DNA of 62,247 bases, filler included, from Basidiobolus meristosporus CBS 931.73 (lineage: Eukaryota; Fungi; Basidiobolomycota): assembly GCA_002104905.1 (NCBI GenBank). It is 3 parts of 3 records of this genome, joined end to end, with 100 filler letters (N's around TTAATTAATTAA, not from the genome) between each part and the next. Parts side by side here need not be neighbours in the genome. Positions count along the whole stretch, not along the records: positions 28,494 to 52,499 come from MCFE01000959.1; 2 more parts are not named here. One strand, given 5' to 3'. The translations under genes and the position numbers were made by a program. Positions 631-60,100 of the stretch are shown here, in pieces. Within the stretch, counting starts at the first letter, position 1, and the number at the start of each line of letters is the position of its first letter. The notes beneath the pieces were generated by a model. It was not told the origin of the DNA. It ran no database searches and saw only the letters and a program-made list of their open reading frames with translations.

Positions 631-633
631 TAT

Positions 634-6259: not shown

Positions 6260-7306
6260 TGTTATGATCTGCCGCTTGAATGTTTGAGTTAGATCAGTTT
6301 TAGTCAAATCAATCAGTTATATGTTTAACTTATCAGTACGTCAGTATTGTCTATCAAATCAGCTGCATTAGTCAGGAAATGAGCCAGCAGATCCTTATCA
6401 GACAGAAATAGATATATTAAGTAGGATCTTATTGGGTGATGATGATGCAATCAAATAAGTCATTAGCCACAGCCTACATTAGGAAATATAATTAGTCAGC
6501 ATTTGATCTGGCAAAATGTATATAAGGAGCTGCTGGAACCTCAATAAAGATCAGTTCAAGTTTTAGCAAATACAGTACTAGCTAAACTCCCTATTCCTCT
6601 ACAACTCTTAAGACTTGTTCTGTTGGATAGTGCCACACTGAGCCATGAGTGCCAAATGATGCCATAGTGTGCAAAGAGGCCAAGTGAGCCTATACTTGGC
6701 CACAGAGTGTGAAACATGGATCTGCATCTTCATGCAAAGCAGCCCCTGTGTTTCACCTCTGATGCAGGAGAAAATCCATTTTTTGACGTTTTTTTGTGGA
6801 TCAATGTTGTGCAGGATGTGTAAGAGCACAGAAAAACTGAAGACATGCATCAGGTACTCAATACCCACGGCACTCTGAATCTAGCTCCTGTAGCTTGTAA
6901 CACGTCACAACAATGCATGGCACTATTGTGGTCCACTGGTACTATCTGGCACAAAGAACTTATAGTGCCAGATAGTGTCATGCATTGTTATGGCTTGTTA
7001 CAAGCCACAGGAGCTAGATTCAGAGTGCCATGGGTATTGAGTACCAAATGCATATTTTCAATCCTTTTGTTCTCTTACACATCCTGCACAACATTGACCT
7101 AAAAAAAAAGGTCAGAAAATGGGTTTTATCCAACAAAATTGTTGAAACACAGGGGCTGCTTTGCATGAAGATGCTGATCTATGCTTCACACTGTGTGGCC
7201 AAGTATAGGCTCACTTAGCCTTACTGGCTCACTATGGCATCATTTGGCACTCATGGCTCAATGTGGCACTATCCAACGGAACAAGTCTTTATACTAAGAC
7301 TTGAAA
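6260..7306 (+). repeat. Solo Gypsy family C LTR containing a MITE
   Basis: Starts TGTTATGATCT and matches C LTRs at 11093 and 24816. The flanks rejoin into sequence collinear with CACTA copy 2. Confidence 0.75.
6611..7288. mobile_element. Foldback MITE (678 bp), PIF/Harbinger-related, TSD TTA
   Basis: Termini AGACTTGTTC...GAACAAGTCT; ~330-bp inverted arms; TTA at 6608-6610 and 7289-7291. Removal restores the C LTR tail CTCTTATACTAAGACTTG. Confidence 0.9.
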
Positions 7307-8223
7307 AATTGAATATATTGGATATGTTTGCCCTAATTGATATCAAGTGTGGTACATTATAGCTTTGTAATATCTGTTGGATGGCATGAGCTTTTTTCTC
7401 AGGGTATTACCAGAATATATCCGGAGTTTGTATTATGTTTTCCTTCAATGGTGGTGGATTCCAGGCAATTTGGACATGATGCAATGGTGGCATTTTTGGA
7501 TGTGAAAGCCATGCAACTGTTGACATATACTGGAATCAGGACAGTCTCTGGGTCATATATTGCCAGCTGCATGATAGTTGTCCACTTGTACCATGTACTT
7601 GGTAAGTTGCATCCCAGAATGATTTTGGCAAATTGTAGTAATAAATCCTCAAAGCCCCCAATACTGATATTAGTGGAAACACACCACTTCTGTAGCTATA
7701 ACATTACATTATCTACCAGTAAATGGATTACTGGTCTCACTTGACTCCATTAATTATCCTTGGCATTTGTTTCAATGCGGGTTGTCTCATTTTATATTGG
7801 GATTTGACCAGGCTCATGTGTGGTACTGTTGTTAGGGGAGATAGGCTCACAAACCCCTTTTGAAAGATATGTTGTAATGATCCCATTAAAAGGCCATCAC
7901 AAATTTAATGTCCTGTTACTAAGAGGTACTGATCCAGTCAGGATACCATGCAGAGACTGTTCCAAAATAATTGAGCACTAGATTTCACAAAAAACTTAGT
8001 CAAGATATTTTATCACAATAATATATAGGTGGCTTTTGATTGATTCCCTGCCAACTTGCTCACTTTCTGATCCCAGACACTCTGTCACCTTCTATCTTTG
8101 TGTGCATACTTCCTGACACAACTGTTTCTGTTACTTTTTGTGCATGCAAATTGATTTATTGTTGTTGATACTTCAGTTGTACCTCAATTGCCAATTGTAC
8201 TGACCTAAATAAGTCCCTATACC

Positions 8224-11092: not shown

Positions 11093-11448
11093 TGTGATGA
11101 TCTTATTCTTGAATATCTAAATTAGATAATTTCTAGTCAAATCAATTAGTTTTATGCTAGGTCTATCAGCATATCAGCATTATATATATTACGTCAGTAG
11201 TGTTAGTCAGCAAATGAGTCAGCAGATTGCTATCAGACAGAAGTGGATATGCTGAGTAGGATTTAGTTGGGTGAACATGAAGGAATCAACTGAACCATTT
11301 CCACAATCTTCAATTAGTCAGCAATTGATCTGGCAAAATCTAAATAAGAATCTGCCAGAACCTCAATAAAGATCAGTTCCAGTTTTAGTAAATATAACAA
11401 TAGCTAAACTCACCATTTCTCTACAACTTTTATTTAAGACTTGTATCA
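11093..11448 (+). repeat. Gypsy C 3' LTR
   Basis: TGTGATGATCT...AAGACTTGTATCA directly after the PPT. Confidence 0.8.
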
Positions 11449-13950
11449 TGTTAACTGTTGCATAGAACTTACATCACAGAATGCCACCATTCAAAGGTAC
11501 TCAAGTTTTCAGGAGTCCACCACCATAGGAGGAAAACATTGTTGATACTCTGGACATATTCCTGCAATACCCCATCTAAGGAAGCTTATGCCATTAAAAA
11601 AATGTTGCAAAGCTATGTACTGCACTCAGTAACAATCAAGCGCAAACATTTACAATTTATTTGATTGCAAAAATTTCATACAACTAAGAAGCAACATCTA
11701 CCTTGAAGGTATATATGAAATGCCTTGGCCCTGACACTTGATGGATTCCCATTAAAAAAAGATTCTGCCTGCAAATCCTGCTGGCTACTGATTCTTATCA
11801 ACCTGAACTTGTTGCCTATCTTACAATATCAGAGCATAAGTGTGATGATGCTCTCACTGGTATCTGGACCTAAACTACCATCCAACTTGAGCAGCTACCT
11901 CTATCCATTGCTAGGTGAGTTTTGTAGGCTTTGCAGCAGAGTATTACTAAATGGCCATCATATCAGAGCATGTTCTTTTATCTTCATTGGAGATACCCTA
12001 GCCATCAGCAAGATAGCTGGCTTCTCTGGGCACAGTGAATGGTATGGCTGGCAAATGTGTAAGATCCCAGACATTTGATCTATAACTAACACAGATTACC
12101 AATATCCAAGCAACAACACTGAGTACATTTTCTTCTCCCAAGAAACCTTTCAGAAGTCAGTATGCAATTGCAGCAAAGTTTGCCTGCCATAAGCCATTAG
12201 CCAGAACATGGAATTAATCAGAAATCATAGATATTTGGGATAGATTGAATATATTGGAGCAAAAGCTTTCCACTGTGGTCAATGCCTTTGCTTACATCAA
12301 TATCACCATGACAATGACCAAGTTGTGCATTGGGCACTTCAAGCTGATTGAGCCCTCTGAGATATCAGTGAAATTTAAAAAAATTGGCAAAAAATGATAG
12401 AGTACTTGCTACCCAAACTACTTCTCACAGGTGCCAATATGTATTTATATACAACTACAGCAATACAAATACCAGGACTGGATGAGCTGATCATGTCTTT
12501 ATCAAAGTAGTCTTCTTAAGCCATTTTAGCCAAGAGTACATCAGAAGCATTGGCAGTCATATATTAGACTTGTTCCATTGTGCCATTGATCATAGTGCCA
12601 GAATGTGCTGTATATTTTGTTATAAATTTGATATTTTAGGGTCATATGCATGCCAATTTTGATCCCAAATTGGCACTGTATGGCACCATCTGGTATTCTG
12701 TGGCATGATCAGACACCATCTGGCATGATTAGGCACCATCTGGCATGTTATGGCACTATTGAGCACTATAATCAGCTGCAATGATGGAACAAGTCTATTG
12801 ACATTGTAAGAATATTGATCCAGAAGGGGATCATTGTTGACAACTTGATGCATCTACAGCATTTGTGCAAGGAGCTTGTGCCAGGATTTGAGTGGCTATA
12901 CCACAAGCATAAAGCTGAGCACATATATCTCAGCTACTACTGTATTCATTCTCCACCATATCATAGTTGGTATGTGGATAATACTTGACCTTGCTTCACC
13001 TTTTAGGAATTTCCTATGGAGCAGATTTGTAGGGAGATAGGAAGAAAAGTCAAGTAGCAGGTACTACCATACCCTAATCTCATCAAGAATATTACCTTCA
13101 AGTTCATTATGGACTTGATAAATTTGCACTTGGCAGACAGCCAGGAAATGTTGGAAATACTGAGGCAAATGTGCACATATAGACACCAATGCATTTGCCA
13201 TCAAAGTACTAGGCAACTACAATATATTGCTATTCAGCTAAGCACTGCACAGGAATTCACACAAACAAGAGCCAAAGTACACCTATAATGGGGACCAGAG
13301 TCCAGCAGATAGAAGGAATATGTTTGCTAAATACAAAAAAATTCTTTACCAATATTCAGGAGGTATTTATGACAAAATTGGTGGTAACCAGGCATATATT
13401 TGCAAAATGTGATTGTTACCAGCAATACAAGATATATGGTAACTTCCAAAATATCAAACTAAAAAGCTATAAGGTTAAGGTTATAGATGTGTGTCAATTG
13501 TAGCAGTTGTTCATGTATGCAGAGGTTAGTAAATAGTAGGCCATAGTTTTCAATGGTTTAGACAAAATGTGTAGTTCCCAAGATAATGGTGGGTAAGTTA
13601 ATCATGAGGGGTGATTTTACAGTGGAATATATGAATGGAGCAAGGGGAGGTAGAGGGAGAAAATATGGTTTTATTAAGTGGCTCAGTAGCATTTTACAGA
13701 ACTAGCTGTAGTCTGCCACACTGCTGTATATAATGCCTGCTTCTCCTCAGATAGGAGTAGAGCACATTAAGACCATCAGAATGCTGTGCAATTGATTTCA
13801 AAAGACCACTTGAGCATTGTCAAGCTTTCACCTTAGTTGGCAGTAAAAGCAGCCAAACAGCACCTCAATCCAAACATTAGAATGTGTAAATGGCCAATAA
13901 TGCCAAACTGCTGGCATTATGATGGACTCATTGTTGGATCCTAACAACTG
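11449..13950 (+). pseudogene. Decayed CACTA-like transposase, copy 2
   Basis: ORF 11725-12078, ALTLDGF...LILINLNL...SLVSGPKLPSNLSSYLYPLL...FIGDTLAISKIAGFSGH, follows the Transposase_21 motif order (DG, NLPP, GPKxP, DxPA, GH). Right boundary approximate. Confidence 0.7.
12566..12796. mobile_element. 231-bp PIF/Harbinger-related MITE, TSD ATT
   Basis: Termini AGACTTGTTCCAT...ATGGAACAAGTCT; ATT at 12563-12565 and 12797-12799. The homologous site in CACTA copy 1 (~5350-5370) is empty. Confidence 0.9.
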
Positions 13951-14897: not shown

Positions 14898-15284
14898 TGT
14901 GGGTTATTACTGACTGTACTTGGTGAGTGGGAGAGCTTGTAGGTCAAGTCAGTACCACTTGGTTCAGAATAGCTTCCGATAGAAGGTAGCAAGGTAATAA
15001 AGACTTCTGTTTATTTCGTCCAAATCTTGTTGTTCTTCCTGGTTCAATTGGGTAGATATATATATTACTTGGGGGGGCTTAGACAATAGACAATGTGTTA
15101 TAAAATAGGGGTGTGAACACCTTCCTGTTATGGTAAGTGTTCTAACTAGATAAGGGCAGGGATAGGAGGGGAGGACGCGTGGGGGAATCATAGGGAGGGT
15201 ACTGGAGGACTTTGGGTAGGACTCTGGAGGGAACTCTTGGGAGAACTCTTGGGCAAAGAGTGGGTACTACATTGAGTACTCACA
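14898..15284 (-). repeat. Gypsy A 3' LTR
   Basis: Direct repeat of 22360-22746. Confidence 0.97.
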
Positions 15285-15328
15285 TATCCCGGGGGTTAAG
15301 TGGGAGCTTCGTCCTCGAAGTTCTTTGA

Positions 15329-17573: not shown

Positions 17574-17702
17574 TCTTTTGTTCTCCCCTTTGGGCAAACT
17601 CCCTCGCGCATATTATTTGTACCTATATTGACTAAAATCTCCTCTAATAAACTTTGACTGTATCCCGTGTCTTCCTCTATCCTTGTCCTGATAATTGTTT
17701 AA

Positions 17703-20700
17703 TCACACTTCGGTCTCAGTGATGATTGGTGGATCATCATGAAACGGTTTCAGATGGGCTGGCGCTACGTTGCTGATTGTCTTATTATTCAGGGTGATGG
17801 TGTACTTTGGTCCGTGGTCCAAACTGATAACGTTGCATGGGCCAATCCATCGGGGTGTAAATTGTGGGCAGAACTTGAGGCCTGCAACAGTTTGGTCATA
17901 CCACACCTTATTGCCTGGTTTCCACTTTTGTCTTGTTAGTTTCTCATTTTTGGGTGGAGGGGGAAGGTGCTTGTCGACATTTTCAAATACTTGTATGTAT
18001 AGGTGGGCGATACGGTGTATCAACCTTTCTATATAGTTGTTATGTGTTGTCAGGGGGACACCTTCCATTGTCAATCCAGCTTCCTCCCACCACTTGGGTC
18101 TTTGTCCATATAGGATTTCATATGGGGAGAAACCCGTCGTTTTATTTGGTGTGGTGCGCATTGCTAGGAGTGTCAGTGGGAGCAGCTCGGCCCATGATTG
18201 GGGAAGTTCCCAGTGAAGCTTCTCCAGTATGCGGCAACACGTCTGGTTCATCCTCTTGGTTAATCCGTTAGTCTGGGGGTGATACGTGGCCGTGAAGACT
18301 TGTTTCACGCCCATCATTTTGTACAGGTGGGCCACGGTGTTGTTCAGGAAGGAACCACCATTGTTGGACAGGAGTATCTGAGGATATCCGTGTCGGCAGA
18401 TGAGGTGTTCTAGAATGAATTGGGCGGTTGTCTTCTGATCTTTATTGCGGACGGCTTGGGCTTCTACCCACTTTGAGAAATAATTGGTAACAATTATTAT
18501 GTATCGTTCTCCTTTCTTTGTTTTCATAAAGGGGCCAACAAAGTCAATCCCTACTCGGTGGAAGGGCAGGTCAACCGGTATTGGTGCGGTTGTCCCTATC
18601 TTCTGACTCCGGTTGAATCTTTCGCAAGTGGTGCATCTTTGTAATGTATTTGTAACGTTGGTCATCATTTTTCGCCAATAAAACGTTTTTCTTAACATCT
18701 TATATGTTGTCAGGGGGTTAGCGTGTCCTAATGACATATGTCTTTCTTGTATGATTTCTTCACGGGCTGCTAGTGGGGGTACCTTGGCTCTGGACTGTCC
18801 TTGGAGGAACCATAGTTGATTTTCTTGTACTTTGTACTGACACCATTTCCTTTGAAATTCTCTCTTCTGTTTGTTTGTAACAATGTGTTTGGGATACCTC
18901 CCTTTCTTTTTAAAGCAGATTACGACCTTGTACTCATCACTGACACGTATTTGGCAAACGGGATAGAGACTGAGGAAGTCTGCGTCCTGGTGTTTCTTGC
19001 CAGCGTGGTGAATTATTTCAAAGTTGTATTGCTGTAGTCATAGGGCCCAACATGCTAGTCGGCCGGTAAAGTCATTAGTTTTCATCAGCCAGACCAGTGC
19101 ACTGTGGTCCGTTACTATTGTGAATTGGCGACCATGTATGTATGTATGGAATTGTTTAATTGAATAAACAACAGCCAGATGTTCTATCTTGGTAACGGGG
19201 TAGTGGCGTTTGTGTTTGTTTAGCAAACGGCTCACGTAACCAATTGGGTGGGATTTGCCGGGTTGGTGGTATTGTCCCAGTACGGCGCCTATACAGGTGA
19301 GGCTTCCATCACAGTTAATAAAAAATCTTGCATCCCAATTGGGAAATTGTAACACTGGCGGTGACGTCAGGGAATGTTTCAGCTGATCAAATGCTCTCTT
19401 TTGAGGCTCCAACCATACAAAACACTGGCCCTTTTGCGTCAATTCATATAGGGGGGCTGCTATCGTCGCGAAGTTTTTGACAAAGCGGCGATAGTAGCCG
19501 GCTAATCCTAGGAATCCCAACACTGCATTAATGTCCTTTGGTGCAGGTGCATTTTGAACGGCTTTCAGGAGTGACGTAGATGGGTATATTCCATCTGCCG
19601 AGATCTTGTGGCCCAGGAACACCAATTTTGTATACAGGAAATGGCACTTCTTGGGATGTAGTTTGAGTTGGTTCTCGAGGAGGGATGTCAGGATACATTG
19701 CACGTCGTGTATATGTTCTTCTACATTGGGGGAATATATCGTGATGTTGTCCAGATACACAAGGGCGCATTCCCATCGTAGATTTCCTAGCACCTTGTCA
19801 ATCATCCTTTGGAACGTAGCGGGGGCATTGCACAAGCCAAAGGGTAGTTGGTTCCATTTGTATAATCCAAACAATGTTATAAAAGCGGTTTTGGGTCAAT
19901 CTTCTGGGGCTACTTTTACTTGCCAATACCCGGAGATTAAGTCAAGAGAGCTAAAATATTTAGCTCCGATTAATCTGTCCAAGAGGTTGTCTATTTGCGG
20001 TAGCGGATACACGTCCTTCCGGGTGACGGCGTTCAATTTCCGGTAGTCGATGCAAAAGTGTCGCTTTCCGTCTTTCTTTGGGACTATCACTACGGGGGAG
20101 GCCCACGGAAACTGGCTCTCTGTAATGATGTCGTCTTTCAATAAAGTTTCAATTGTCTCTTTGATATAGTCTGTGTCAATTTTCAAATTCCTATAGGCTT
20201 TTTGCTTGATGGGGTATTTGTTGGCAAGGTGGATTTGGTGATATACCCCAGGTATATGACCAATTACTTGGTTCTTAGAGAATACTCGGGCAAGCGGACG
20301 TATTCCTTCTAGGAATTTGTCTTGTAACGTAGGCGGTAGACCAGGGTCCACATCTAGTTTGGGGAGTTCTTCTTCTGGTTCTTTGTTTGGAGGTGGTCCT
20401 TGGTCGTTTCTGTCAACTTCCTCTAAGTTTAACAATGGCACTCCTCTAGGCAATGTCACCATGTGTTGCCCGTTGTTAACCACTAAGCATTTCAGGCTTT
20501 GCGTTTCAAATTTTGGTGGTATCCATACTTTAGGGATTGAGATTCCTTCCAGTTGCTTGGATGCTTTTGCTGCGGTTATCATTCTTCCGCTTGTTGAATA
20601 AGCTATTGGTGTTTCTAATGAGATCACCGTCTCACTGGCAGGTGGTATTTTTATCACCTTTTGTGTGATGATCGGAGACTGCAACGGTTTCACCTCTTCA

Positions 20701-21545
20701 ATTGTCACACTGTTGCTACGCGCCTTGCTCTCATTGGTGATATGAATCAGTGGGATACTCTTGGTATCCCACCTGAGTTCAGATGCACTGTAAAGTATAT
20801 CCATCTTATGTTGGATAAACCAACTCTCGCCAATGAGTAAGCCATTGGCTGCAACGGGTAGGACCACGACATCTTGGCGTATTATCAAGTTGCCTAGCCA
20901 AATAGGGCAATTAGGCACCACACCTATCGTTGTATCCAGTTGGTCATTTGCTAGCCGTACTCAAATGGTGTTGTTGGGGACTATATTTAGTTTTAGACGT
21001 TTTGCTAATGACTCTGACATGATCAACGTAGAGGATCCTGTGTTGATAAGGGCAAGAATCTCCTTATTCTCTATATGTACCCTTACGTATGTACCTTTAT
21101 TTGGTTTTTGCAGGACCGTCTGGTTGACATGGAGGGTTGTTATCTCCTTCAATCCCTCTATCAGTTCCTTGACTAGAGCCGGGGCCAGTCCCAGTAAATT
21201 GGTTATTGGGAGGGTTGCCTTGGTTTGCTCTAGTACCTTCATTATGGGGAATAGGCCATGGGAAGACGTGCTAGCGTTCTTCGTTCGCTTTAACACTTCT
21301 TCCCAAGGTTCATTCCGTACTTCTTCACCTAATTCCACGCTCTTTCCTTTTGACGGAACCTCTACTACAGGTTCCTTTGCCTCCTCTCTAGAAGCATCAT
21401 GTCAACGCTTCTTCTTCCGCACTTTGATTGTCCTGACCGGAGGGCTTAGATTGACTGAGTCCCGTTGGCCTCCTGGCAAGGGACTCTGTCTTTTGACGCC
21501 TTCTTCTCTTTTGTGTCCAGTATGGCTTCTCTTCCGTACCGTTTT
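17703..21545 (-). pseudogene. pol: Gypsy A pol (protease, RT, RNase H, integrase; no chromodomain)
   Basis: One reading frame broken only by four TGA codons (21402, 20961, 19896, 19038). Motifs ALINTGSS, FCIDYRKLN, LDLISGYWQ, YLDN, TDHSAL, H-H-C-C, GIDFVGP. Confidence 0.95.
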
Positions 21546-22318
21546 TCACATTCATGGGCCCGGTGACCTACTTCTCCACACACATAACACGGATACTGTT
21601 GTCGCGGTTGTTCCATCTGTTGGGTCAGGACTTGAACCTGGGCCTTTAGATCTACAACAGCTTCCCAGAGTTTATCACCTTCTTTAGGGACTTCTTGGAT
21701 ATTGTTGATCGAGAGTTCTTGGACCTTTTGCCGTAATTCCTCTAACTCACGGTCTTTTGGGGAGGCAATTTTTCTTTTCTTACGGGGGATCCCTGTCCTT
21801 CGATCATTCGTATCACTATAGGGTAGCCCCCATAGCAAGATGACCCCTTGTACTCGTTCAACCAACTCTTGCAACGTTTTACATCCCTGTTGTTCTTTGG
21901 ACGCCCTACGTCTTATTTTGTCATCTAAGCCCATGATGTAATACCTCATGAGCTGTTGTTCGGCGATTTTGTCCTTTGGGAGACATTGAACTCGTTGGAG
22001 AAACAGTTCAGTGTAGGCTTCATAGCTTTCACTGCTTTTCTTCCGCAAGGACAGTAGAAGGGCTTTGTAGTGGTATCCTTTGGCATATAGAAAGCGTGTC
22101 TTGTAGGCTTCTTCTAGTGCATCCCAGTCATCTTTGACTGCGTCTTCCAACCCATAATGCCATTGCCATGCTGACCCTTCCATATGTCTTGCAAACTCTC
22201 TTACTTTCTTATTGTCATCCCATCCAGCATCAACCGCAACTCTCTCAAACTTATCAAACCACTCAAGGGCTTTCTCTCTTGTTCCCTTGTATGTTTTTAG
22301 TTTGATTGTAGTAGTCAT
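21446..22318 (-). CDS. gag: Gypsy A Gag, 290 aa, with CCHC zinc knuckle
   Basis: Intact ORF starting 41 nt after the 5' LTR; CYVCGEVGHRAHEC. Confidence 0.9.
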   Translation of the reverse strand: MTTTIKLKTYKGTREKALEWFDKFERVAVDAGWDDNKKVREFARHMEGSAWQWHYGLEDAVKDDWDALEEAYKTRFLYAKGYHYKALLLSLRKKSSESYEAYTELFLQRVQCLPKDKIAEQQLMRYYIMGLDDKIRRRASKEQQGCKTLQELVERVQGVILLWGLPYSDTNDRRTGIPRKKRKIASPKDRELEELRQKVQELSINNIQEVPKEGDKLWEAVVDLKAQVQVLTQQMEQPRQQYPCYVCGEVGHRAHECEKRYGREAILDTKEKKASKDRVPCQEANGTQSI

Positions 22319-22337
22319 TACCTCACTTGTGCTTATT

Positions 22338-22355
22338 TCCGCAGAGACGGCACCA
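22338..22355 (-). promoter_or_regulatory. PBS, probably tRNA-His
   Basis: TGGTGCCGTCTCTGCGGA lies 4 nt after the 5' LTR; complementary to a tRNA ending -AGACGGCACCA. Confidence 0.65.
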
Positions 22356-22359
22356 AATA

Positions 22360-22746
22360 TGTGGGTTGTTACTGACTGTACTTGGTAAGTGGGAGAGCTT
22401 GTAGGTCAAGTCAGTACCACTTGGTTCAGAATAGCTTCCAATAGAAGGTAGCAAGGTAATAAAGACTTCTGTTTATTTCGTCCAAATCTCATTGTTCTTC
22501 CTGGTTCAATTGGGTAGATATATATATCACTTGGGGGGGCTTAGACAATAGACAATGTGTTATAAAATAGGGGTGTGAACACCTTCCTGTTATGGTAAGT
22601 GTTCTAACTAGATAAGGGCAGGGATAGGAGGGGAGGACGCGTGGGGGAATCATAGGGAGGGTACTGGAGGACTTTGGGTAGGACTCTGGAGGGAACTCTT
22701 GGGAGAACTCTTGGGCAAAGAGTGGGTACTACATTGAGTACTCACA
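22360..22746 (-). repeat. Gypsy A 5' LTR
   Basis: Adjacent to the PBS; direct repeat of 14898-15284. Confidence 0.97.
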
Positions 22747-28393: not shown

Positions 28394-28493
28394 NNNNNNN
28401 NNNNNNNNNNNNNNNNNNNNNNNNNNNNNNNNNNNNNTTAATTAATTAANNNNNNNNNNNNNNNNNNNNNNNNNNNNNNNNNNNNNNNNNNNN
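28394..28493. other. Artificial contig linker
   Basis: 44 N + TTAATTAATTAA (stops in all six frames) + 44 N. Confidence 0.95.
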
Positions 28494-32089: not shown

Positions 32090-33408
32090 CAGCCAAACAG
32101 AGTACATCAGTCAGTTCTGCAGTTTTGCTCCTTAGCTACAAAGATTGCCTTAAAGTTGCTGAACCACTCCACTGTACCTTAAGTATGCTGTAATGCTTCA
32201 GAGCATTATACCACTCTTTACAATGGCTTCTTTGACTCACTTGCACTGTCACAAGCAGCGGCTCACCTTTGATGTATAATTTGGTTGCTTCATTTTTTTT
32301 TGTCTACCGTTAATTCCTGTATATAGAGCTTGTATGCATTTTAACATCCTATTAGTTTTCTACAGTCAGTATTAAAACCAGTTCCTATCATATTGCCTTG
32401 GGCAGATATCAGCAATCCTCCTGCATGCCTGTATGCTTTAAAGTAGCATCTGGACTCTGCATTGATTGTTTCAAACTCTGAGGTCCAGTACAAATGGCAA
32501 GATAAGCTTCTTCATGTACCTTTTATTTCCAACACTAAAATTCAGGACTATTTCTCATTCCAGTACATATCCTAACAGGGATAATCTGCTCTTTCTCAGT
32601 ACTGTTAGATGATCTGTCCCTTTCAGGCTGTGTTTAATTCCTATCATCATCATTGGTGGTAATCACTTCACAACAGTGTCCTCCGTAAAGCAGCTGGCAT
32701 CATATGACCATAGGAGCAGCCTGATACAAGCACTCAACAGTGGCTGGATGACCTTCTTGTCATAAAAAACTACTAACACTGAATGTCCTACTTGCAAAGA
32801 TTTCACCATTGTGGTAGAAAACATTACTCTGATTCTGCATATAGACACATAAGATCCTATCTACCAAAGCTCATGCTGTCCAACATATATTGTGATATTA
32901 CTGAGTACTACACCTGGTTTGAATCAGGTGCTAATATTTTCAACATTCATGATGACAATCAGTAAAAAAATTATTTATTTATTTATCAGTAATGCTGCAG
33001 AAGTATTTCTCTCAGTGGATATCTTCTTCAATGAATATAATGTTGAAATATTGGACTATTTGGTATCATTCAGCAGCTAAAAATTTACTTAACAATTCTA
33101 GGCTAGTCTTAGTCACTGTAGGACTCATTTACTGCCTTAACTTTGCCACTTTCTCTAGATATATGATCTTATGATTATTCCCCTATAGTCAGGATCAAAT
33201 TGGCACTATTACCAAACATTATGTACTAACCCTGAAACTGTTACAGAATGCTCCTGAATATTGAGAAACCCTCCCTACTTATGTTGCAGCTGTATTACTT
33301 CTACAAAGGTATAAATACTGAGCTTCTTTATGAATAAACAACAGTTCAACTATTATCACTATTTCTTGATAAGTTCCTTATATCCAAATCACTTCTTAAA
33401 TTGCAACA

Positions 33409-33420
33409 GGTTATGAGCCC
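33409..33420 (+). promoter_or_regulatory. Half-tRNA (iMet anticodon arm) PBS
   Basis: GGTTATGAGCCC abuts the LTR and is complementary to GGGCUCAUAACC of yeast-type initiator tRNA. Confidence 0.8.
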
Positions 33421-36400
33421 CAATTGCCTTAATCTATTCTAAAGATGACTTCTACCAGCAAACAAAGCAATACCAACATCTTCCCTGTAAAGGAGAGGTT
33501 TGATGAGAAGAACTACAGACTTTGGAGAATCAAGATGCAGATCCACCTTGAGGAAAGAAAGCTTTGGAACATAGTAACAGGAAAGGAAGTTGAGCCCAAA
33601 GGAACAGCAGAAGATGTGGAGAAGTTTCAAGAGAAGGAGAGAAAGGCCTTCAATGCAATATGCATCAATGTGCAAGACTCCTTCATTGGACAAATCCATG
33701 CCTCAAATACTGCCAAAGCAGCATGGGAATCCTTAGAAAAGATCTTTAGAGCAAAGTCAGTATCAAGCAAGCTTTACTTGAAACAAAAGTTCTTCAACAT
33801 GAGAAAAAAGCCAGATGATGACATGCTACAACTCATTACCAGAATGGAGACACTTGCAGAAGAACTTTACAGTATTAATGCTGGTGTAGATGATGAAGAA
33901 AAGATACTCTGTCTGCTTTGCAGCCTACCAGACGAGTATGAGCCACTCATACTTTCTTTTGAAAGCAGAGAAGACAACTTGACTTTAGACTATGTCAAAG
34001 GAAGACTTCTCCATGAAGAGCTCAGACGTAATGATCAAACAGAGAAAATTGAAGATAATGCTTTATTCAGTTCAGAAAGGCGTACAGAAAAGAAGGGAAA
34101 GCAACAAAACCAAAGAAAACCTGGCTGCTGTAACTACTGTAAGAAGCCAGGACACTGGGCAAGAGAATGCAAGAAGAAACAAGCAGACGAAAAACAGAAA
34201 CTAGAGCAGGCAAACCATATAACTACTGATGAACAGTTATTTGTCACTGTACAAGAGAGTGCAAGTAACCAAAGTAATGAATGGTATATTGACTCTGGAG
34301 CATCACAGCATATTTGTGGTATAAAGGATTGGTTCAGCAACTTAAAGACTATTCCCGTAAGAAAGGTTTATCTGGGAGATAACTCTGCATTGGAAGCTAC
34401 CGCTAGTGGGTCTATACAGCTAAATATGAGTGATAACTCAGGGGCAACAACAGCAAAACTGACTGACGTACTCTATGTACCTGGAATAGCTAAGAACCTA
34501 CTCTCAGTCAGTAAAGCAACTACTCAGGGACTGAAATTTGTTTTTACTAAGCTGAGCTGCTCAATATTGAGTGAAAATGGACAAAAATTAGCTTCGGGAA
34601 TCAGAGATCACAATATATACAAGTTACAATGCAAGATCTTTGTCCTTGAGTATGTCAACATTGCTGAAACTGATGAAACCAACTGGGAGACGTGGCATAG
34701 GAGGCTAGGACACATAGGGGAACAGAAAATGAGCCAATTGGTGAAAAATCAGCTTGTTTTGGGCCTAAAATACTCAATTCCGATCAAATTGAATGTTTGT
34801 AAGGGATGTTCATATGGCAAACAAGCTAGGCAACGTTTCAAGAGCTCAGAAGGCATCAATACTACCGAAATATTGGCTATTGTACACTCAGACATATGTG
34901 GCCCCATGAGAACACTGTCCTTTGGAGCCAAGAGATACTTTATGACGTTTATTGTTGACAAGACAAGATATACATGGGTGTACTTCCTCAAAACAAAGGA
35001 TGAAGCTTTAGAGACGTTTAAGCACTTCAAGAACATGGCAGAAACACAAACTGGCTGTAAATTGAAGGTACTACGAAGTGACAATGGAGGAGAATACTGC
35101 TCAAAGGAGTTTGCAAAATACTGCTTATCTACTGGTATACTTCAACAGACCACAGTTCCTCATACTCCACAGCAAAATGGAGTAGCAGAACATGCAAATA
35201 GAACAATAGTAGAGATGGGAAGATCTATGCTACATGATAAGGGAATGGACTACAAGTTTTGGGCTGAATCTGTTGCTACCGCTGTATACATTAAGAACAG
35301 ATGCCCAACAACAGCACTACGTGATTCTACACCCTTTGAAGCATATACAGGCAAAAAAACCAGATCTCCAGCACCTCAGGATCTTTGGCAGTGATGTTTT
35401 TTATCACATCCCTGACAAAAAACGCTCAAAGTTGGAACCAAAGAGTAGGAAAAGGGATCTTTCTTGGGTATTGTGAAGATACTAAAGGGTATCAGAGTGT
35501 ATGATGGCAAAGTTCAGAAGCTGATCAAGAGCAGGGACGTTGTATTTGAGGAGAATTCAGATCAGAAAGCCACAGAAATCATTGGCCAGCTGCCTGATGA
35601 TGCAATCAACACAAATGAAGAAGATACGTACCAAATCCAGCCAGAGATGGAAGATACTTCTACAAGTTCCAGATCGGAACAGATTATCCCAGTTAGGAGA
35701 TCTACCAGAATAAGAAATGCCCCTGGATCCTGGTGGCAGACATCCAATGATAATCGAAGAAGCTTATCTTGCCTTATGTGCCAAACCTCAGAATCTGGAA
35801 CAGGCAATGCAAGGTCCAGATGCTACTAAGTGGCAACAAGCCATGCAGGAGGAGTACCAATCACTGATCAAGGCAAAAATGTGGGAACTGGTAGATTTAC
35901 CAAATGGGAGAAAGCCAATAGGATGTAGATGGGTCTACAAGATCAAGATAACCTCAAATGGTGACGTTGATAAGTACAAGGCTAGATTGGTAGCTAAAGG
36001 CTATTCCCAGATCCAGGGACTAGACTTTAAGGAAACATTTGCTCCAGTTGCCAAGTTTAACTCTATTAGGACAGTTCTAGCCCTGGCAGCTGTACACAGT
36101 CTAGATCTACACCAAATGGACGTCAAAACAGCCTTTCTAAATGGGGATTTGCAAGAAACTATATATATGGAGCAACCAGAAGGTTTTACCAATCCAAAAG
36201 GCCCCAAAAGGTGTGCAAACTTAGAAAATTGTTGTATGGGCTTAAGCAGGCACCCACAGCATGGTATAACAAGATTGACACATATCTAGAGGAAATTGGG
36301 TTCTCTCGTAGCACTGCAGATCACAGTATAATATGTGAAACAGCTCAAAAAGGGTGTGATCATCCTAGTTCTTTATGTGGACTACTTAATTATAGCTACA

Positions 36401-38020
36401 AGTGATCAAGAGGCACTTAAACAGACAAATCAGATCTCTTCAGCAAGTTTGAGACAAAAGATCTTGGAAAATTGAGCTATTTTCTTGGAATTGAGGTCAA
36501 ATTTGACATAGCTACGCAGAAAATTGTGCTGAATCAGTCTAAGTACATCAGGGACATTCTTAGACGCTTCAAGATGGAAAATTGCAAACCTGCAGCAACC
36601 CCTATGGACAATAACCTGAAATTAAGCAAATCTTAGCCAGTTATAGATGAATACGGCTCAAATATGGACAAAAACTTTCCCTATCAATCAATGGTTGGTA
36701 GCCTAATGTACTTGATGGTGTCTACACGTCCAGATATTGCAGTAGCAGTTGGAATAGTCAGTCAATTCATGCAGAATTATGGATCAGATCAAATTGCAGC
36801 AGTTAAGTGGATTTTCAGATATCTACAAGGTACCATAAATATGGTACTGGAATACTCTGGAGCAGCTAATAGGCAAAAATTTGATGGTTATAGTGATTCA
36901 GATTGGGGTAGGGATCTGATTGACAGACGCTCTACCACAGGCTATGTATTTCTTTATGCTGGTGCAGCTATTACTTGGAATTGCAAGAAACAACCAACTG
37001 TGGCACTATCTACAACTGAAGCCAAATATATGGCTGCATGTCAAGCAACTAAGGAGGCTATATGGCTACAAAAATTATTCAAAGACTTAGGTTTTAATTC
37101 AGGTGAACCAACATGTATTTACAAGGATAATCAAAGTTGTATTTCATTAGACTTGTTCCATCGTACCGTGCCAGGGCGCGCGGCGCAATCCGCGGTTGCA
37201 AAGAACAATCGGGCGCGATATTATAGCTACCAGAAGGCAGGATTGTTCTTGGACAATTTTGCACTATGCGGGACAATCTTGCACACTATGGCACAATCTG
37301 ACACGATGAGGTTGGTGCAGATGATTGCGCCAACTTGTAATGCTTGCATCACGTGCGCGATCGGATACCGCTATAATGGCAGGTAAAATCCGGTATTTGG
37401 ATATGTTTCTTTAATGTAAATGGAAATAAATGTGTATGACACTAAAAACTACACTGATACTTACCATTTTGGTTACCCTCACTCCAATTGGACAGTATCT
37501 CAGTGGTTAATTGGTGCAAAAGTATCCTGAAGCTGGCAGCCCCCAATTGGCTCATTGACTACTGAAAAAGCTACCTGATTTGCCATCAAATATCCCATTT
37601 AGCCCATTGAGCAAGTAAATCCCTGATCCTAGTGATTGGGCAAGGTGTCATAGCTAGCACGCAAGCAATCGTGTAGGTGCAAAACAGATCCAATAGCTGC
37701 ACTGGTATTACAGATGACGTATATATATGCAGGGTGTTTATTTATAGGGGTTCTGTCTCAAATGTGAGACGTCCTTGATATTACTTATATCAAAAATTTG
37801 ATGATCACTGATTTGCGATGGCTTGATTCGGATTGCAAAAAAAAAGGGCTGTTGGGATCATTACAAATGTGAGCGATTCAAAGCAATTGCATCATCTTCT
37901 CCTGGGTTTTTTTCTCACAGGGATTACTACTGAAGCATTTGGTAGTGACTCACTTTGCACACCTATACTACTTCCTGGCTGACTATCATCTTGGCTACTT
38001 GTGTATTCGTAGTCAGTATT

Positions 38021-39148
38021 TTAAGTTGATGAGTGCAATGCTGCAGCTTGGCCGCGCTGAATCGCTCCGACTGAACCAACTGAACCGGCCTGTAGTGCTA
38101 CGCGCTGACGCGTTCTTTTACTTGCCAAGGGCTCCGGTGGTTGAGTCACTTCATGTTGGTCATCATCAGTCAGTTCACCAGAAGTAACTTGCTGATGGTC
38201 AGGCAAAACGGCACGCGCAGGCGCGCCTTGACGCATTGAGATGGCCCTTGGCTGAGTTCAATGTGATGCCGCATGTTGACGCGACTCGGTCCGCTCCAAT
38301 GGACTTGTGTCTAAATGAGCAGTTTGGCGAGTTCTTGTAGTTTTGCTCTGAAGCGCGCACGTTGACCCAACGCGCGTTGACTCAATGCGCGTTGACTCGA
38401 CGCGGGGCGTTCTGTTAAAGGGTGTTGGTGTAGTCTGGACTGACGTGCGCCGGCGCGCTGTGGTTGCAAGAGATGGTAGGGAATCCAGCAAGGCATGCTG
38501 GCGCGATCTGGACAATGTTGCTTGCAGTCTGTATTCTTCCTCCTGAAGCTCACCATCTGATTCCTCAAGGTATTCACTTACCCTCTGTCTGATACTTTGG
38601 AGCTGTTGCCTGGATGAGTCCTGTGTATATTGCTCTCGGAAGCCACTTAGCTCTACTAATATATCACGTAGTACATCAGTCATTTGAGGCAAAAACTCAT
38701 TCAAAATCTCTTTGGTTCCCAAAGTTGTGGCACAAACGGACGCGTCCGGCCCGTACTGTGCAAATTGCGCGCGAAATTGTTCCCGCGCGGCTTCCTTGTC
38801 AAATCCCCTCACTCCCAGCTCATTCTTGATTTCAATACTTGTCTTGTTATATATCTTTTTACATACATTGGCTGGCATCTTGATGTAGAACTCATGCCAC
38901 AGCTTTCTACTCAAATTCTTCCATCTTTGTCGACTCTCTGAGGTATCTAGTTCTGCTAGATTAATCAGTAGTGCCCAAATATCTGTATGAAGGCTCATCA
39001 TAGACACTTGGGCCATACTAAAATCATTTGGCGAGAACTTGAACGGATCCAACATTGACTTCTCCGGTCCGGACCGCGCTAGTGAGCTGGGGGATGGGTT
39101 TTGTCTGGGTTGTACTAAAGATGAGTTGAGGCTTGGTATGGGGACCAT
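38021..39148 (-). pseudogene. Harbinger partner ORF, ~375 aa with one internal TGA; possible Myb/SANT-like DNA-binding protein
   Basis: ORFs 38258-39148 and 38021-38236 share a frame, separated by a single TGA. SRQRWKNLSRKLW resembles a Myb/MADF recognition helix (weak). Confidence 0.65.
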
Positions 39149-39507
39149 AGCAACAGATTTGGATACTTATACAGCAGTATATTGGCATCAACCTGGTCTT
39201 ATATGAAATATATATGAAAACTTAAGTGATTGTTGAATTTTCCATATATTATGCATGATGCATCTTGGATTGCGTTGACACGGATCAGATCACATCAATC
39301 GCAGATTTCCTAGTTGATTATAGACCTATGATTAAAGCATCAATAAAAGTACCAAGGCATTGTTTGCGGATGATTTTTGCGACATAATGATGGGATACAT
39401 GGCAATTGATGGAGATTTAACCATAATGTGTTAAAAATCAGATAAATAACGCAGATCGCGCTGAATCAATTCAAACCGCCTCCATACGATCATCCATCAA
39501 TTTTAAT

Positions 39508-40392
39508 ATGACTTACTCATCTGAATGGTCTTTTCTCATCAATCCCATCACTACCACTGGATTTCCTTTTGACACACTGGAGGAGATCTATTCCAAGTAC
39601 TGTGGACCATCAACCCCAATCTACTCAAGGAGATCCCTTGTTAAGCTTCTCTGCTATTACAAGAACTATTGCCCTACAAGGTTTCATCTCACCATCCATG
39701 GCAACAAAAGTCCTAGAAGCTTTCATTCCCAGCTGACAGCAATGGACAACCACCTTGCAGAGGGTATGAATGACTTAGAGCAAGCTTGGAATACTAGGTT
39801 CAGAAGCTCCAATAGACTTCCATATCCCAGAGTGTTCAGCAACAGGTTCCATATCAGGAGTATTTTGGATACCTTCCCAGTGAGGATTAACAGACCTTCT
39901 AGAGGGCAGAGGCACTTTTATTCCGGCAAGTACAAGGCACACTGTGTGAAGTTTCAAGCACTGTCTGACATTGAGGGTAACATCATCTGGTTTGGTGGGC
40001 CATTTGCTGGAAGTAGGCATGACAAAGCACTCTGGGTAGAGAATCATCCTGAATTCAGTAGAGGGGAGAAATGTATGGCAGACTTGGCCTATATAGGAGA
40101 GGATTGTCAGAGATTAGGATGTATTACAGCTTATAGGAAGCCAAGGAATGGTGTGCCTAGCAGGAAGCAGAAGCTCTACAATGAGATATTTAATCATTTC
40201 AGAGTGAGGGCAGAGCACACATTTGGATAACTGAAGAGATTCAGCATATTGGCAGGTAAATACAGAGGAAAGTCATATATAGGTGAAAACAGCAGAATAG
40301 GTAAAATAGTTAAGATACTTATTAATGCACAGTATGTTCATACAAGAAGACATCTACTGAGAGAAATGTGTCTGGAGCATTATGAAGAGTAA
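39508..40392 (+). pseudogene. Harbinger/IS5-type DDE transposase (DDE_Tnp_4-like), 294 codons with one internal TAA at 40228-40230
   Basis: ILDTFP (D), YSGKYKAHCVKFQ, GSRHD, ADLAYIG (D), RVRAEHTFG (E). The frame continues after the TAA as LKRFSILAGKYR. Confidence 0.88.
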
Positions 40393-41419
40393 ATAAAGCA
40401 AGGAAAGCACTATTCTGAGCAACATAAGTAAGATTGAGTAAAATTTCCAGTAACTGTATCATACCACTGGCATCATGGTAGAAATTATAGTGCCAGATAG
40501 TGCCGTAGGGTGCCAGATCGATCCGGCACTATAAACCGGCTGGCACTATGTGGCACTATCCAATGGAACAAGTCTATTAGCTAGAAATCCTACTAATCAT
40601 GCCAGAACACAGCACATTGATATACAGCATCACTTTGTGAGGGAAGCTGTAGAAAATAACTTAGTGGAGCTGGTTTACTGCCCAACTGACAAAATGGCGG
40701 CAGACATATTGACAAAACCACTAGCTAGGCCACAGTTTGAGATCCTTAAAGAGAAATTGGGATTAAGAAATTATTTAGTTGAGGGGGAGTGTTGAAATAT
40801 TGGACTATTTGGTATCATTCAGCAGCTAAAAATTTACTTAACAATTCTACGCTAGTCTTAGTCACTGTAGGACTCATTTACTGCCTTAACTTTGCCACTT
40901 TCTCCAGATATATGATCTTATGATTATTCCCCTATAGTCAGGATCAAATTAGCACTATTACCAAACATTATGTACTAACCCTGAAACTGTTACAGAATGC
41001 TCCTGAATATTGAGAAACCCTCCCTACTTAGTGTTGCAGCTGTATTACTTCTACAAAGGTATAAATACTGAGCTTCTTTATGAATAAACAACAGTTCAAC
41101 TATTATCACTATTTCTTGATAAGTTCCTTATATCCAAATCACTTCTTAAATTGCAACAGCAATACCATCAGCTCCATAGGATTTATTGTGCTGGCTGATA
41201 GCTCTCACTGAATATGAAATATTTGGACATGTTCTGATCATGATGTACATTAGACTACCAGCCATAGACTGATAGGTTGGTTGTGGCTTTCTAATGACAT
41301 CATGCTTGCTTGATTTGGTTGAGTTTTGACCAAGTCAAGGTTGATCACCATTAGGTTGGCTGCCAGTTTATAGTCCTCCATTTGGTACTTCTTTAGTATA
41401 TCTTGAGTATTTATGGACT

Positions 41420-45591: not shown

Positions 45592-46375
45592 TGTTGAAAT
45601 TATTAAGTTGTCACCTAAGTATTGATGCTGACTTAGTCCAATAGATCTTATTCTCTGATTAGCATTCTGTTCTGACCAGAGGGGGCGGCCCTTTCACCCC
45701 CCCCTGGCCCCCCGACCCGTAGGCCCCCCCCTTCGAGACCCCCATGGGGGCGAAAAAGGGGCCACTATGGGGGCCTACGGGAGGGGGCGGGAGGGGGGCC
45801 TACGGGCAGGGTGGGGTGGGTGGGGGGGGCAATAGGGGGGGGGCGGGGGATAGAGGCCCCAACCTCGCCTCTATCAGTGACTGACAACCACAGAATCTCA
45901 GTCTCCCATCGAGTCAACTAGGGAAGGGGGGCGGGATCTATTTAGGAATGCCCCGACTATTTTCCGGAGCCCTAATACGACCAACCCCCCGGGGGAGAGC
46001 CATCAACCCATTTGAAACTGTTACAGAATGCTTCTGAATATTGAGAAACCCTTCCTATTTAGTGTTACAGCTGTATTACTTCTACAAAGGTATAAATACT
46101 GAGCTTCTTTATGAATAAACAACAGTTCAACTATTATAATTATTTCTTGATAAGTTCCTTATATCCAAATCACTTCTTAAATTGCAACAGGTCATGAGCC
46201 TCAATTGCCTTAATCTATCTCTAGATGATGACTACCAGCAAACAAAACAACACAAACATCTTCCCTGTAAAAGAGTGGTTTGATGAGAAGAACTACAGAC
46301 TTTGGAGAAGCAAGATGCAGATCCACCTTGTGGAAAGGAAGCTTTGGAATACAGTAACAGGAATAGAAGTTGTGC
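45592..46375 (+). mobile_element. E-related Copia 5' stub: LTR 45592-46189 with a different U3, PBS GGTCATGAGCC, gag start
   Basis: From ~46013 nearly identical to the E LTR; gag MTTSKQNNTNIFPVKEWFDEKNYRLW truncated after ~50 codons. Confidence 0.85.
45679..46000. other. GC-rich, CpG-containing hairpin/G-quadruplex block
   Basis: Long C and G runs, several perfect inverted repeats, and many G-tracts at 45804-45849. Confidence 0.85.
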
Positions 46376-46559
46376 AAGTATCAACTTGCGGGCAAGATAA
46401 TATTGGAACAGTAGTTACTGATGACTGGTCAAATATAACTGGGGTGGCAAATCACTGGCCATGATCCTTGAAATACTCCCTATGCTGTAAGCATGCTTCA
46501 TGGCTGAGATGCTTGCTACAATAGCCATGTAGTCTTTTTCTCTTCTCTTATGGTGTTGA

Positions 46560-52499: not shown

Positions 52500-52599
52500 N
52501 NNNNNNNNNNNNNNNNNNNNNNNNNNNNNNNNNNNNNNNNNNNTTAATTAATTAANNNNNNNNNNNNNNNNNNNNNNNNNNNNNNNNNNNNNNNNNNNN
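52500..52599. other. Artificial contig linker
   Basis: Same N44-TTAATTAATTAA-N44 pattern as 28394-28493. Confidence 0.95.
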
Positions 52600-57116: not shown

Positions 57117-60100
57117 TGTTGTAAAAATTTGTATTTCCACCTAAATATTCACCTAACTTAGTCACTTAGATCATCACCTTCAGATCCTAGAGAATACTGA
57201 CCTAAATTCCTTGTTGGGATTTACCCAGAATATTTTCACCAAAATACCAGGTACCCAGAACGTGAAAAATTCTCAAAGTTGTCCAAAAAGCCCCAAACTT
57301 TGCACACATGTTCTTGGGTCCTTCCTTAACCTATTCTACATGTTTGTAATGCCCAGACCAGGTAAAAGTATAAATACTACTTTACATTCAATAAATCATT
57401 AAGTGAAAACCACATAATCTACTTGTTCTCCCAATCACTTCCAATATCTCCAAGACTCTTACAACAGAATTAAGAAAATCAAGCACCAATAAGAAGGAAG
57501 AAGAAAATGCTTTAACAAGCAATGATAACCAACAAAGGAGGTACCCAAGGCCCTACAAAGGCAACAGCAACCTGTTTTGCAACTACTGCAAAAGGAAAGG
57601 ACACACATCAGACTGGTGTCTCAAGAAGAGAGATTATCAGCAAAAGAAGCCTGAATATGGAAATGCTACAACAACTGAAGATAGACTATTTATGTCTGCA
57701 CTAAATATGACTACAAACAAGGATTCTCAGATGTGGTATATTGACTCTGGAGCTTCTCAACACTTTACACACCAAAAAAGACTTGTTCTGTTGGATAATG
57801 CCACATTGAGCCATGAGTGCCAAATGATGCCATAGTGTGCCAGAGAGGCCAAGTGAGTCTATACATGGCCACAGAGTGTGAAACATAGATCTGCATCTTC
57901 ATGCAAAGCAGCCCCTGTGTTTCACCCATGATGCAGGAGAAAATCCATTTTTTGATGTTTTTTTGTGGATCAATATTGTGCAGGATGTATAAGAGCGCTA
58001 AAGGATTGAAGATATGCATCTGGTACTCAATACCCATGGCACTCTGAATCTAGCTCCTGTGGCTTATAACATGTCACAAAAATGCATGGCACTATCTTGG
58101 TCTACTGGCACTATCTGGCACTATATTTAATTATATGCCCTAAAGTAAGATAAATACAAAGCACTTATAGTGCCAGATAGTACCAGTGGACCAAGAGAGT
58201 GCCATGCATTTTTGTGACATGTTACAAGCCACAGGAGCTAGATTCAGAGTGCCATGGGTATTGAGCACCTCATGCATGACTTCAGTCCCTTTGTGCTCTT
58301 ACACATCCTGCACAAAATTGACCTAAAAAAAAAGGTCAAAAAATGAATTTTCTCTAACACAATGGGTGAAACAAAGGGACAACTTTGCATGAAGATGCAG
58401 AGCTATGTATCACACTCTGTGGCTAAGTATAGGTTCACTTGGCCTCTCTGGCACACTAAGGCATCATTTGGCACTCATGGCTCAATGTGGCACTATTCAA
58501 CAGAACAAGTCTAAAGAACTTTCACCCAATATCAAGAAATTCCAATTAAGAAGGTTTTCATGGGTGACAATAGAACACTTGATGCAGTGAGCAAAGGAAC
58601 CATCCAAGTAAATCTCAGAAGCAGTGAAGGAAGCCATACACTGACCTTTAAAGAAGTACCCTACGTACCAGAAATAGTCAAGAACCTACTCTCTGTAAGC
58701 AAGGCCACAGCAGAAGGACTCAGTTTCAGTTTTGACAATTCTGGATGCGGGATCACTGATCAAAATGGTGCCCATATTGCTTTGGGCATCAGAGATCAGA
58801 ATCTATACAAGTTGACTTATATTCCATCATATTTGGAAGCCAATATAAGTAACTTAAATGAAGAAACACCAATGCTTTGGCACACAAGATTTGGATACAT
58901 CAATTTTGATTATTTGTGTGAAATGATCAAAGATCAGCTAATTTCTGCAGTGAAAATTGATCTCCCAGCTAATTTGGACCACTGTGAAGCCTGCATATAT
59001 GGGAAACAAGCCAGACAGCCGTTCAAGAGCTCTGGGTTAATCAAAACTAAGAAAAAATTAGATCTAATTCACTCAGATATGTGTGGGCCTATGCAAAATT
59101 TATCCATAGGCGGGATGAAGTATTTAATCACTTTTATTGATGATTATACAAGATACAAATGAGTCTACTTCATGGAGAAACAGGAAGAAGCTCTGTCTTA
59201 GTTCAAGGAGTTTAAAGCCATGGTGGAGAGAGAAACTGGTGAAAAAATCAAGAAAATACGCTCTGACAATGGTGGAGAATATACCTTAAAACTCTTCATC
59301 TACTTCTGCAAAATTCATGGGATAAAGCAAGAGACTACTGTACCATACTCCCCACAGCAAAATGGTATAGCAGAATGTGCTAACAGAGCAATAATTGATA
59401 TGGCAAGATCTATGATCTATGATCAAAGATTATCCGATGATTTTTGGGTGGAATCAGTTGCCACTACTGTATACCTTAAGAATAGGAGTTATAACAGAAT
59501 ACTTTGTGATTCTACTCCATTTGAAGCATGGTATGGATACAGACCAAGTGCACAACATCTAAGAATATTTGGGTGTACAGCATATGCCAAAAAACTGGCC
59601 ACAAATCAGTCAAAATTTGGGCCAAAAAGTGTAAACTGCATATTTTTGGGCTACTGCAATGAGAGTAAGGCATACAGACTCTACAATACCAAAGCAAAGA
59701 AGCTGATCAAGTCCAGGGATGTGTTGCTTGATGAAAATGCAAAATTTTCACAAAAAATGACATCAGATTATGACCAAAATTTGATATCAAGTCCACCAAT
59801 TGTCAGGATTGAATCAGAGCAAAACAATCAACATTTTTTCACTCCAGAGGACTTTACAACCGTGATTCAGCCATAATCAGTGCCCAGGAATATCCCAGAA
59901 GTGATCATTCCAATATCAAATGCCTGGAGATCCAATCGGACAAGAAATAGCCCAAATCACTATATTAATGAGGGTACAAACTTAGCCTATGCCTATTCAG
60001 TCCATATTGATGAATCCCAGACTGTAAAAGAGGCCCTAAATAGCCCTCAGACAAAGTTTTGGAGATCTGCAATGACTGAGGAATATCAGGCCCTGATGGA

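Follow-up and report, generated by a model that had tools for sequence, protein, structure and literature searches.

Introduction

Pangu transposons, which correspond to Harbinger2 of Repbase (Kojima 2025, PMC12730594), are eukaryotic elements of the PHIS superfamily that duplicate three base pairs of the form ANT, carry terminal inverted repeats (TIRs) of 11-40 bp starting with AG or GG, have a mean length of 3487 bp and contain a second open reading frame (ORF) that is mostly motif-less (Han et al. 2015, PMC4482050). Table S3 of the same study comprises 34 families with ANT (23), AWT (9) or ATT (2) target site duplications (TSDs; N is any base, W is A or T), several of them in fungi. HarbingerS has been placed near Pangu (Kojima 2025, PMC12730594), ISL2PR is named without a description in PMC10045372, and ANT-type Harbingers have been found again in Ectocarpus, whose autonomous Harbingers, ANT type included, all have tail-to-tail genes (PMC12477816). 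In canonical Harbinger elements the protein of the second gene binds DNA at the termini or subterminally and aids complex assembly (PMC13668399). The PHIS groups are taken as defined in PMC11304231, PMC13668399, PMC3673617, PMC4122938 and PMC9179366. Here we describe a DNA transposon at positions 37149-40575 of a 62,247-nucleotide stretch from the genome of Basidiobolus meristosporus CBS 931.73 (GCA_002104905.1), the whole of which is called the window.

This element probably represents an abundant two-gene transposon family with 3-bp TSDs, most often AAT or ATT, which likely moves by cut-and-paste and whose transposase likely forms a separate branch without a named member among the homologs checked. 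An earlier annotation of the window (the original prediction) had described it as a recently mobile Harbinger system with relaxed target sites composed of A and T only.

Results

Structure of the element and its target site duplications

The element and the three MITEs (transposable elements of the miniature inverted-repeat type) associated with it are as follows.

37149..40575, unstranded: full-length DNA transposon of PHIS type, 3427 bp; neither gene is intact in this copy
37146..37148, + strand: left ATT TSD, based in part on 44 contigs (runs X1 and X2 together) skipping 3430 nt
37149..37161, + strand: left TIR, 13 bp, perfect, AGAC start
38021..39055, - strand: ORF2, head-to-head with the transposase gene, start at 39055 or 39148; helical N-terminal half and S/T/R/Q-rich tail
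39508..40392, + strand: DDE transposase of 294 codons (DDE_Tnp_4, E 2.7e-15) with the triad D121/D192/E236, a helical KYCG domain at the N-terminus and an in-frame TAA at 40228-40230
40563..40575, - strand: right TIR
40576..40578, + strand: right ATT TSD
12566..12796, unstranded: 231-bp MITE with the identical 13-bp TIR, ATT TSD and a 10-bp-phased motif run, inside a decayed Transposase_21 element
6611..7288, unstranded: 678-bp foldback MITE, TTA TSD
57779..58512, unstranded: 734-bp foldback MITE, AAA TSD, same family as MITE 6611

The perfect 13-bp TIR of the element is AGACTTGTTCCAT, and 19 of the first 25 bases of the two ends are complementary. Exact 3-bp TSDs flank all four insertions, namely ATT (37149), ATT (12566), TTA (6611) and AAA (57779); when the insert and 3 bp are removed, each of the four sites matches a paralogous empty site within the window without gaps. 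The empty main site is also found in contigs of one public sample, 20 in run X1 and 24 in run X2, which skip 3430 nt, i.e., 3427 + 3. Ends of the form TAGAC with a 1-bp TSD, or a 2-bp TSD, were rejected, as nothing beyond AGAC is common to the TTA and AAA sites and the skip measures 3430 nt. The four TSDs and the AGAC-starting termini of the original prediction are therefore confirmed, and the 13-bp TIR with a 3-bp duplication agrees with the TIRs and 0-3 bp duplications of the PHIS superfamily. A complete two-ORF element with three MITEs of the same termini had also been proposed: the element, its head-to-head genes and the MITEs stand, but the 13-bp TIR is identical only in MITE 12566.

As expected of a PHIS element, the transposase is IS5-related, with the triad D121/D192/E236, the DDE_Tnp_4 match and a match to the IS5 model NF033581 of NCBIfam (E 3e-11, below the family cut-off). 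Its structural model, built from 7 sequences (pLDDT 83.6), consists of an N-terminal helical domain and an RNase H-like core; Foldseek with this model returned weak rows, mostly DDE enzymes, with none at E<=0.001, and no sequence relative was found in the PDB. One stop per ORF had been reported, which is correct for the transposase gene, interrupted by the TAA at 40228-40230, but not for ORF2, which has two (TGA 38258-38260 and TAA 38021-38023). As both genes are broken, the window copy cannot be autonomous. In other copies, according to 24 and 27 loose-end contigs, 6 extra bases are present at 38023 and the frame reads through to about 37895, while the TGA lies on a decayed CpG at which about 58-60% of the summed contig depth shows the other decay product. 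The transposase gene retains 1 CpG in 885 bp (0.03 of expectation), compared with 57 (0.91) in the adjoining ORF2 of the same element.

No Pfam family is recognised for ORF2 at cut-off; the Pfam scan gave neither a Myb/SANT match at E<=10 nor a YqaJ or THAP match, and the Atlas search gave no match to this ORF. Its single-sequence model is weak (pLDDT 60) and finds only generic helical bundles in a fold search, with which a Myb fold is still compatible.

Lineage of the transposase

Word-based searches returned 2, 10 and 25 transposase homologs, and a full profile search 147 clusters at E<=1e-30. None of the 19 homologs looked up bears a taxon label, all being unnamed metagenome proteins. The Atlas rows for homolog P0001 are DDE_Tnp_4 clusters in which diatom or arthropod is commonest and few phyla are known, and serve as leads only. 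Features of the clade are an N-terminal KYCG, a first aspartate set in D[TS]FP, a spacer of 17 residues and EH; the window protein has all of these (KYCG, ILDTFP, spacer 17, EH). The 17-residue spacer is present in 55 of the 80 measurable homologs; EH occurs in 89/100 and P at D+3 in 112/125 aligned homolog rows. A 37-row tree unites the window protein with 18 unnamed proteins in one branch (support 98/95), apart from the bacterial insertion sequences (ISs) and from P0011, which alone in the protein set has the core Pangu motifs and is the single stand-in for Pangu in the trees. A quick tree including 19 of 145 new homologs gave a 24-row branch with support 98, P0011 again lying outside it. 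By these motifs and trees, the transposase likely lies in a separate, large PHIS branch without a named member among the homologs checked.

Literature searches, whose scope did not extend to Repbase and Dfam, found no account of this clade. The TIR pattern had 0 matches in metagenome contigs, and scans for transposase loci confirmed none in metagenome and viral contigs and gave 1 weak match of 17 candidates in genome contigs. As a separate observation, four homologs (P0004, P0007, P0026 and P0040) have a C-terminal extension of Tudor/Agenet-like appearance, at which the Pfam Agenet matches (E 0.29 for P0004, 0.11 for P0026) give a hint.

Among named proteins, bacterial IS5-family transposases come closest, at 27-34% identity. 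Cyanobacterial elements of this kind, such as ISCysp19, share with the window element the AGAC...GTCT ends, the AAT or ATT duplication with an occasional TTT (matched TSDs AAT x5, ATT x2, TTT x1), the 17-residue spacer, EH and a transposase of about 300 residues. They differ in having a single gene, a length of about 1 kb, only ~30% identity and a separate branch, with an HTH_Tnp_4 N-terminus in the metagenome members. We presume that the ISCysp19-type elements belong to the ISL2-like group. In three AGAC-ended bacterial copies the two flanks disagree (L019/L025, AAT/ATT; L016/L023, ACA/AAT; L015/L022, CTT/ATT).

With Pangu/Harbinger2 the element has in common the 3-bp ANT/AWT TSD, a short TIR (13 bp) starting with AG, a length of about 3.4 kb, close to the typical 3.5 kb, two ORFs of which the second is motif-less, and the layout of the catalytic block. 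The differences lie in the residues of this block, which we compared by eye with the published Pangu and Nuwa rows (PMC4482050, Fig. S3). The core residues of Pangu are G[FC]xDGT, P[DN]G, a spacer of 22-30 (the range in all 14 rows) and EW; the window protein has DxFP for DGT, IEG but no P[DN]G, a spacer of 17 and EH for EW, and in addition the KYCG domain. From this core, three of the published 14 Pangu rows deviate as well. The element works like Pangu, a likeness by which membership in Pangu is not yet established. Its head-to-head genes further distinguish it from the tail-to-tail Harbingers described for Ectocarpus (PMC12477816).

The other PHIS groups are more distant. ISL2EU and Spy share with the window element a PHIS-type transposase and an AT-rich target; however, ISL2EU has a 2-bp AT TSD, GG ends and a YqaJ gene, where the window element has a net duplication of 3 bp, AG ends and no YqaJ match, and Spy inserts at AAA|TTT without a TSD, whereas the family of the window element shows a 3-bp duplication at 4/4 sites. 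Canonical PIF/Harbinger elements likewise have a DDE_Tnp_4 transposase, a second gene, a 3-bp TSD and MITE families, but they are distinguished by a TWA target and other catalytic-block motifs; their partner is a Myb/SANT protein, for which ORF2 gives no Pfam match.

A possible, though doubtful, alternative to a separate branch is that the element simply belongs to Pangu/Harbinger2 as a divergent member, or to some other group named in Repbase (HarbingerS, ISL2PR), and that the lineage is not new. Every structural feature of Pangu is present (AWT, AG start, 13-bp TIR, 3.4 kb, motif-less ORF2), and the transposase fits the core Pangu rows, but not the Nuwa block, without gaps: the ungapped RP-Q-Y[SN]G-H-K-Q-GP-G-HD block, common to the transposase and core Pangu, could be that of a divergent Pangu. 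HarbingerS is close to Pangu and ISL2PR is a bare name in the sources given above. The trees moreover contain no named eukaryotic PHIS protein (Pangu, HarbingerS, ISL2PR), and P0011 is a single long branch chosen by its motifs. These points weigh against a separate branch. On the other side, the window protein lacks P[DN]G, which is found in 11/11 core Pangu rows, EW, found in 10/11, and the 22-30 spacer; its bit score with P0011 (41.5) is lower than with bacterial IS proteins (up to 79.6); and the two Pangu-core motifs occur together in 0/145 new top homologs.

The original prediction of a distinct lineage with broader target choice is thus upheld for a two-gene PHIS/Harbinger-type element apart from canonical Harbinger, but not for the broader target choice (see below). 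That the lineage is fungal, as the original prediction also had it, finds no support among the homologs, of which those looked up bear no taxon label, and nothing speaks against it either. Tentatively, and leaning slightly against it ourselves, we may go further and envisage a seventh PHIS group without a description, widespread in unsampled microbial eukaryotes. Its compact IS-like transposase would have kept the bacterial AGAC ends and the AWT target while gaining the KYCG domain, a new partner gene and phased subterminal sites, possibly through an independent move of the IS5 family into eukaryotes, and some relatives would carry a Tudor/Agenet-like tail that may read chromatin. While the target behaviour is already known, the transposase clade would be new if confirmed. 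Provided that it is unnamed, it would occupy the gap that separates bacterial IS5-family elements from eukaryotic Pangu/Harbinger, and one could ask how often such elements entered eukaryotes and how the second gene was gained.

Target choice

Target flanks were read from the contigs of the same sample (X1 and X2) aligned with MITE 6611 at its right end, where the MITE itself is flanked by TTA; the read-out consists of column majorities and not of counts of paired TSDs. The contigs ending at this terminus number 155 in X1, which imply at least about 80 insertions, and 139 in X2, and the majority string is AAT in both runs. A further 12 + 12 contigs end one base earlier and read C+ATT; such rows could include T-starting flanks, yet they start with A. 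The majority is therefore AAT or ATT in 4/4 rows at this terminus, and no T-starting row was found among the 12 rows listed. These hold 416 of the 601 partly placed contigs, at most 185 being spread over 120 others, so that T-starting (TTA/TAA-type) flanks amount to at most roughly a fifth, assuming one loose end per contig. At the right end of the main element, 28 contigs read A then AT, and 24, 30 and 31 contigs read ATT. In X1 alone 24,080 contigs match the element, mostly 90-99% alike, with differences dominated by C>T and G>A.

The majority AAT/ATT agrees with the ANT (often AWT) rule of Pangu/Harbinger2, to which two of the four window sites are exceptions. T-starting flanks being a minority, the TWA rule of canonical PIF/Harbinger does not apply, and the earlier claim that the family departs from it is borne out. 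The relaxed A/T-only target, on the other hand, fails: AG-starting ends combined with AWT/ANT targets have been published for Pangu and are also found in AGAC-ended bacterial ISs. That all four TSDs in the window are A/T-only 3-mers (chance ~0.001 given the window composition) is explained equally well by an AWT preference as by a relaxed A/T choice. The bacterial relatives of the element likewise have AGAC ends, AWT targets and, now and then, an exception made up of A and T alone, so that none of these amounts to a new relaxation. We regard TTA and AAA as minority sites that are tolerated, here in old MITEs.

Several points count against this preference for AWT. Majorities leave the share of exact AWT sites undefined, and where flanks are AT-rich a majority of A/T is to be expected. 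Both X1 and X2 come from one sample, perhaps the same source as the window, and the read-out at the MITE 6611 terminus mixes MITE ends with some main-element ends. With two of four window sites outside ANT, the real tolerance may be sizeable. Finally, 4 further bacterial end pairs with unmatched flanks were excluded from the count of 8.

A broad A/T-only target, in which AWT is only slightly preferred and the foldback MITEs were perhaps moved by a laxer sister transposase, appears unlikely to us. The window does contain the end of such a gene:

32915..33043, - strand: sister transposase gene, 3' end (80% over 70 bp), truncated by the 5' LTR (long terminal repeat) of the Copia

Both foldback MITEs have non-ANT TSDs matching empty sites, and the flanks were read as majorities and not as counts. 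However, it is precisely at the foldback MITE terminus that AAT/ATT is the majority in all four rows and that T-starting flanks remain within roughly a fifth, and a comparable exception occurs in the bacterial relatives (TTT, 1/8). No TIR was found downstream of the sister gene end. A canonical PIF/Harbinger element with a TWA target, a Myb/SANT partner and a few odd insertions is largely refuted and highly improbable: the DDE_Tnp_4 match, the one TTA site, a W-x17-W stretch of ORF2 resembling a trihelix (by eye) and two head-to-head genes would suit it, but under TWA the flanks on both sides would start with T, which is so in a minority, the N-R-K and WPGS blocks seen in Nuwa are missing from the transposase, and ORF2 gives no Myb/SANT match. 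Head-to-head genes also occur in Caenorhabditis Harbingers (PMC13668399).

MITEs, subterminal motifs and a possible mechanism

MITEs 6611 and 57779 form a separate foldback family of ~700 bp, with 10 terminal bases exactly in common with the element; in the terminal 35 bases they match its right end at 32 and 30 positions, respectively. They are identical to each other at 608/678 positions, i.e., ~10% apart, and have almost no CpG, which indicates that both are old. These foldback MITEs may depend on the window transposase or on the sister with its 3' end at 32915-33043. MITE 12566 sits inside one member of an inverted pair of decayed element copies (4321-7530 and 11443-13737), with a Transposase_21 (CACTA-type) fragment at 11719-12075.

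RTGCC motifs are found near the ends of the element and of all three MITEs:

40490..40556, unstranded: RTGCC subterminal motifs with 10-bp spacing, common to the element and the MITEs

Of the 27 successive RTGCC spacings (up to 45 nt) in the four elements, 14 measure exactly 10, compared with 0/9 in the rest of the window. The phased motifs are putative protein-binding sites on one helix face.

A cut-and-paste cycle, as thought for Pangu/Harbinger2 and for AGAC-ended bacterial ISs, would be consistent with these features. The transposase would bind the 13-bp TIRs and excise the element; a 3-nt staggered cut at AWT followed by gap repair would give the TSD. ORF2, by analogy with the second protein of canonical Harbinger, or else the N-terminal domain of the transposase, might bind the RTGCC motifs on one helix face, and MITEs retaining only the TIR and the motifs would move in trans. 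Copies would then decay by CpG deamination, the probable source of the first ORF2 stop. If an intact copy exists, the abundance of the family, the 294-residue transposase and the 3-bp AWT target would make it a candidate small gene-delivery tool.

Host Copia, age and surroundings

The transposon is inserted in a Copia retrotransposon:

33041..41158, + strand: host Copia with LTRs at 33041-33408 and 40790-41158, interrupted by several stops and frameshifts and lacking a TSD; its RNase H region contains the transposon

The two LTRs differ by 3 substitutions and 1 indel (99% identical), a near-identity from which recent movement had been deduced. The flanks of the Copia show no matching TSD (TATAA vs GCAAT) and come from different loci, the left one being the sister transposase end and the right one the reverse transcriptase region of another Copia. 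Judged by these flanks, the Copia is recombined or misjoined/misassembled, which makes the LTR clock unreliable: the near-identity stands, but the pair is not a clean single insertion and the dating is weak. A third partial copy of the Copia LTR, with a gag start, is located at 46013-46461.

The window copy of the transposon differs from four low-depth contigs at 7/581, 9/455, 37/1163 and 21/1421 positions. With these few differences and the CpGs kept in ORF2 (0.91 of expectation), the copy appears young relative to its surroundings; activity is not implied.

Nearly all of the window consists of nested remains of Copia, Gypsy and DNA transposons. Its observed/expected dinucleotide ratios (CA 1.34, TG 1.30, TA 0.82, CG 0.20) rule out repeat-induced point mutation as the decay process, and no CHG signature was found in the window. 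Gaps of N runs around the TTAATTAATTAA spacer occupy 28394-28493 and 52500-52599, and nearby joins may be artificial. Direct and inverted copies (83-93%) of an unassigned 600-1000-bp repeat, without a Pfam match in the frames scanned, occur at 1-4056 and 15795-16866. Finally, a full-length Gypsy element on the - strand at 14898-22746 has LTRs 98% identical, a CAAAG TSD, CpG at 0.62 of expectation and several stops.

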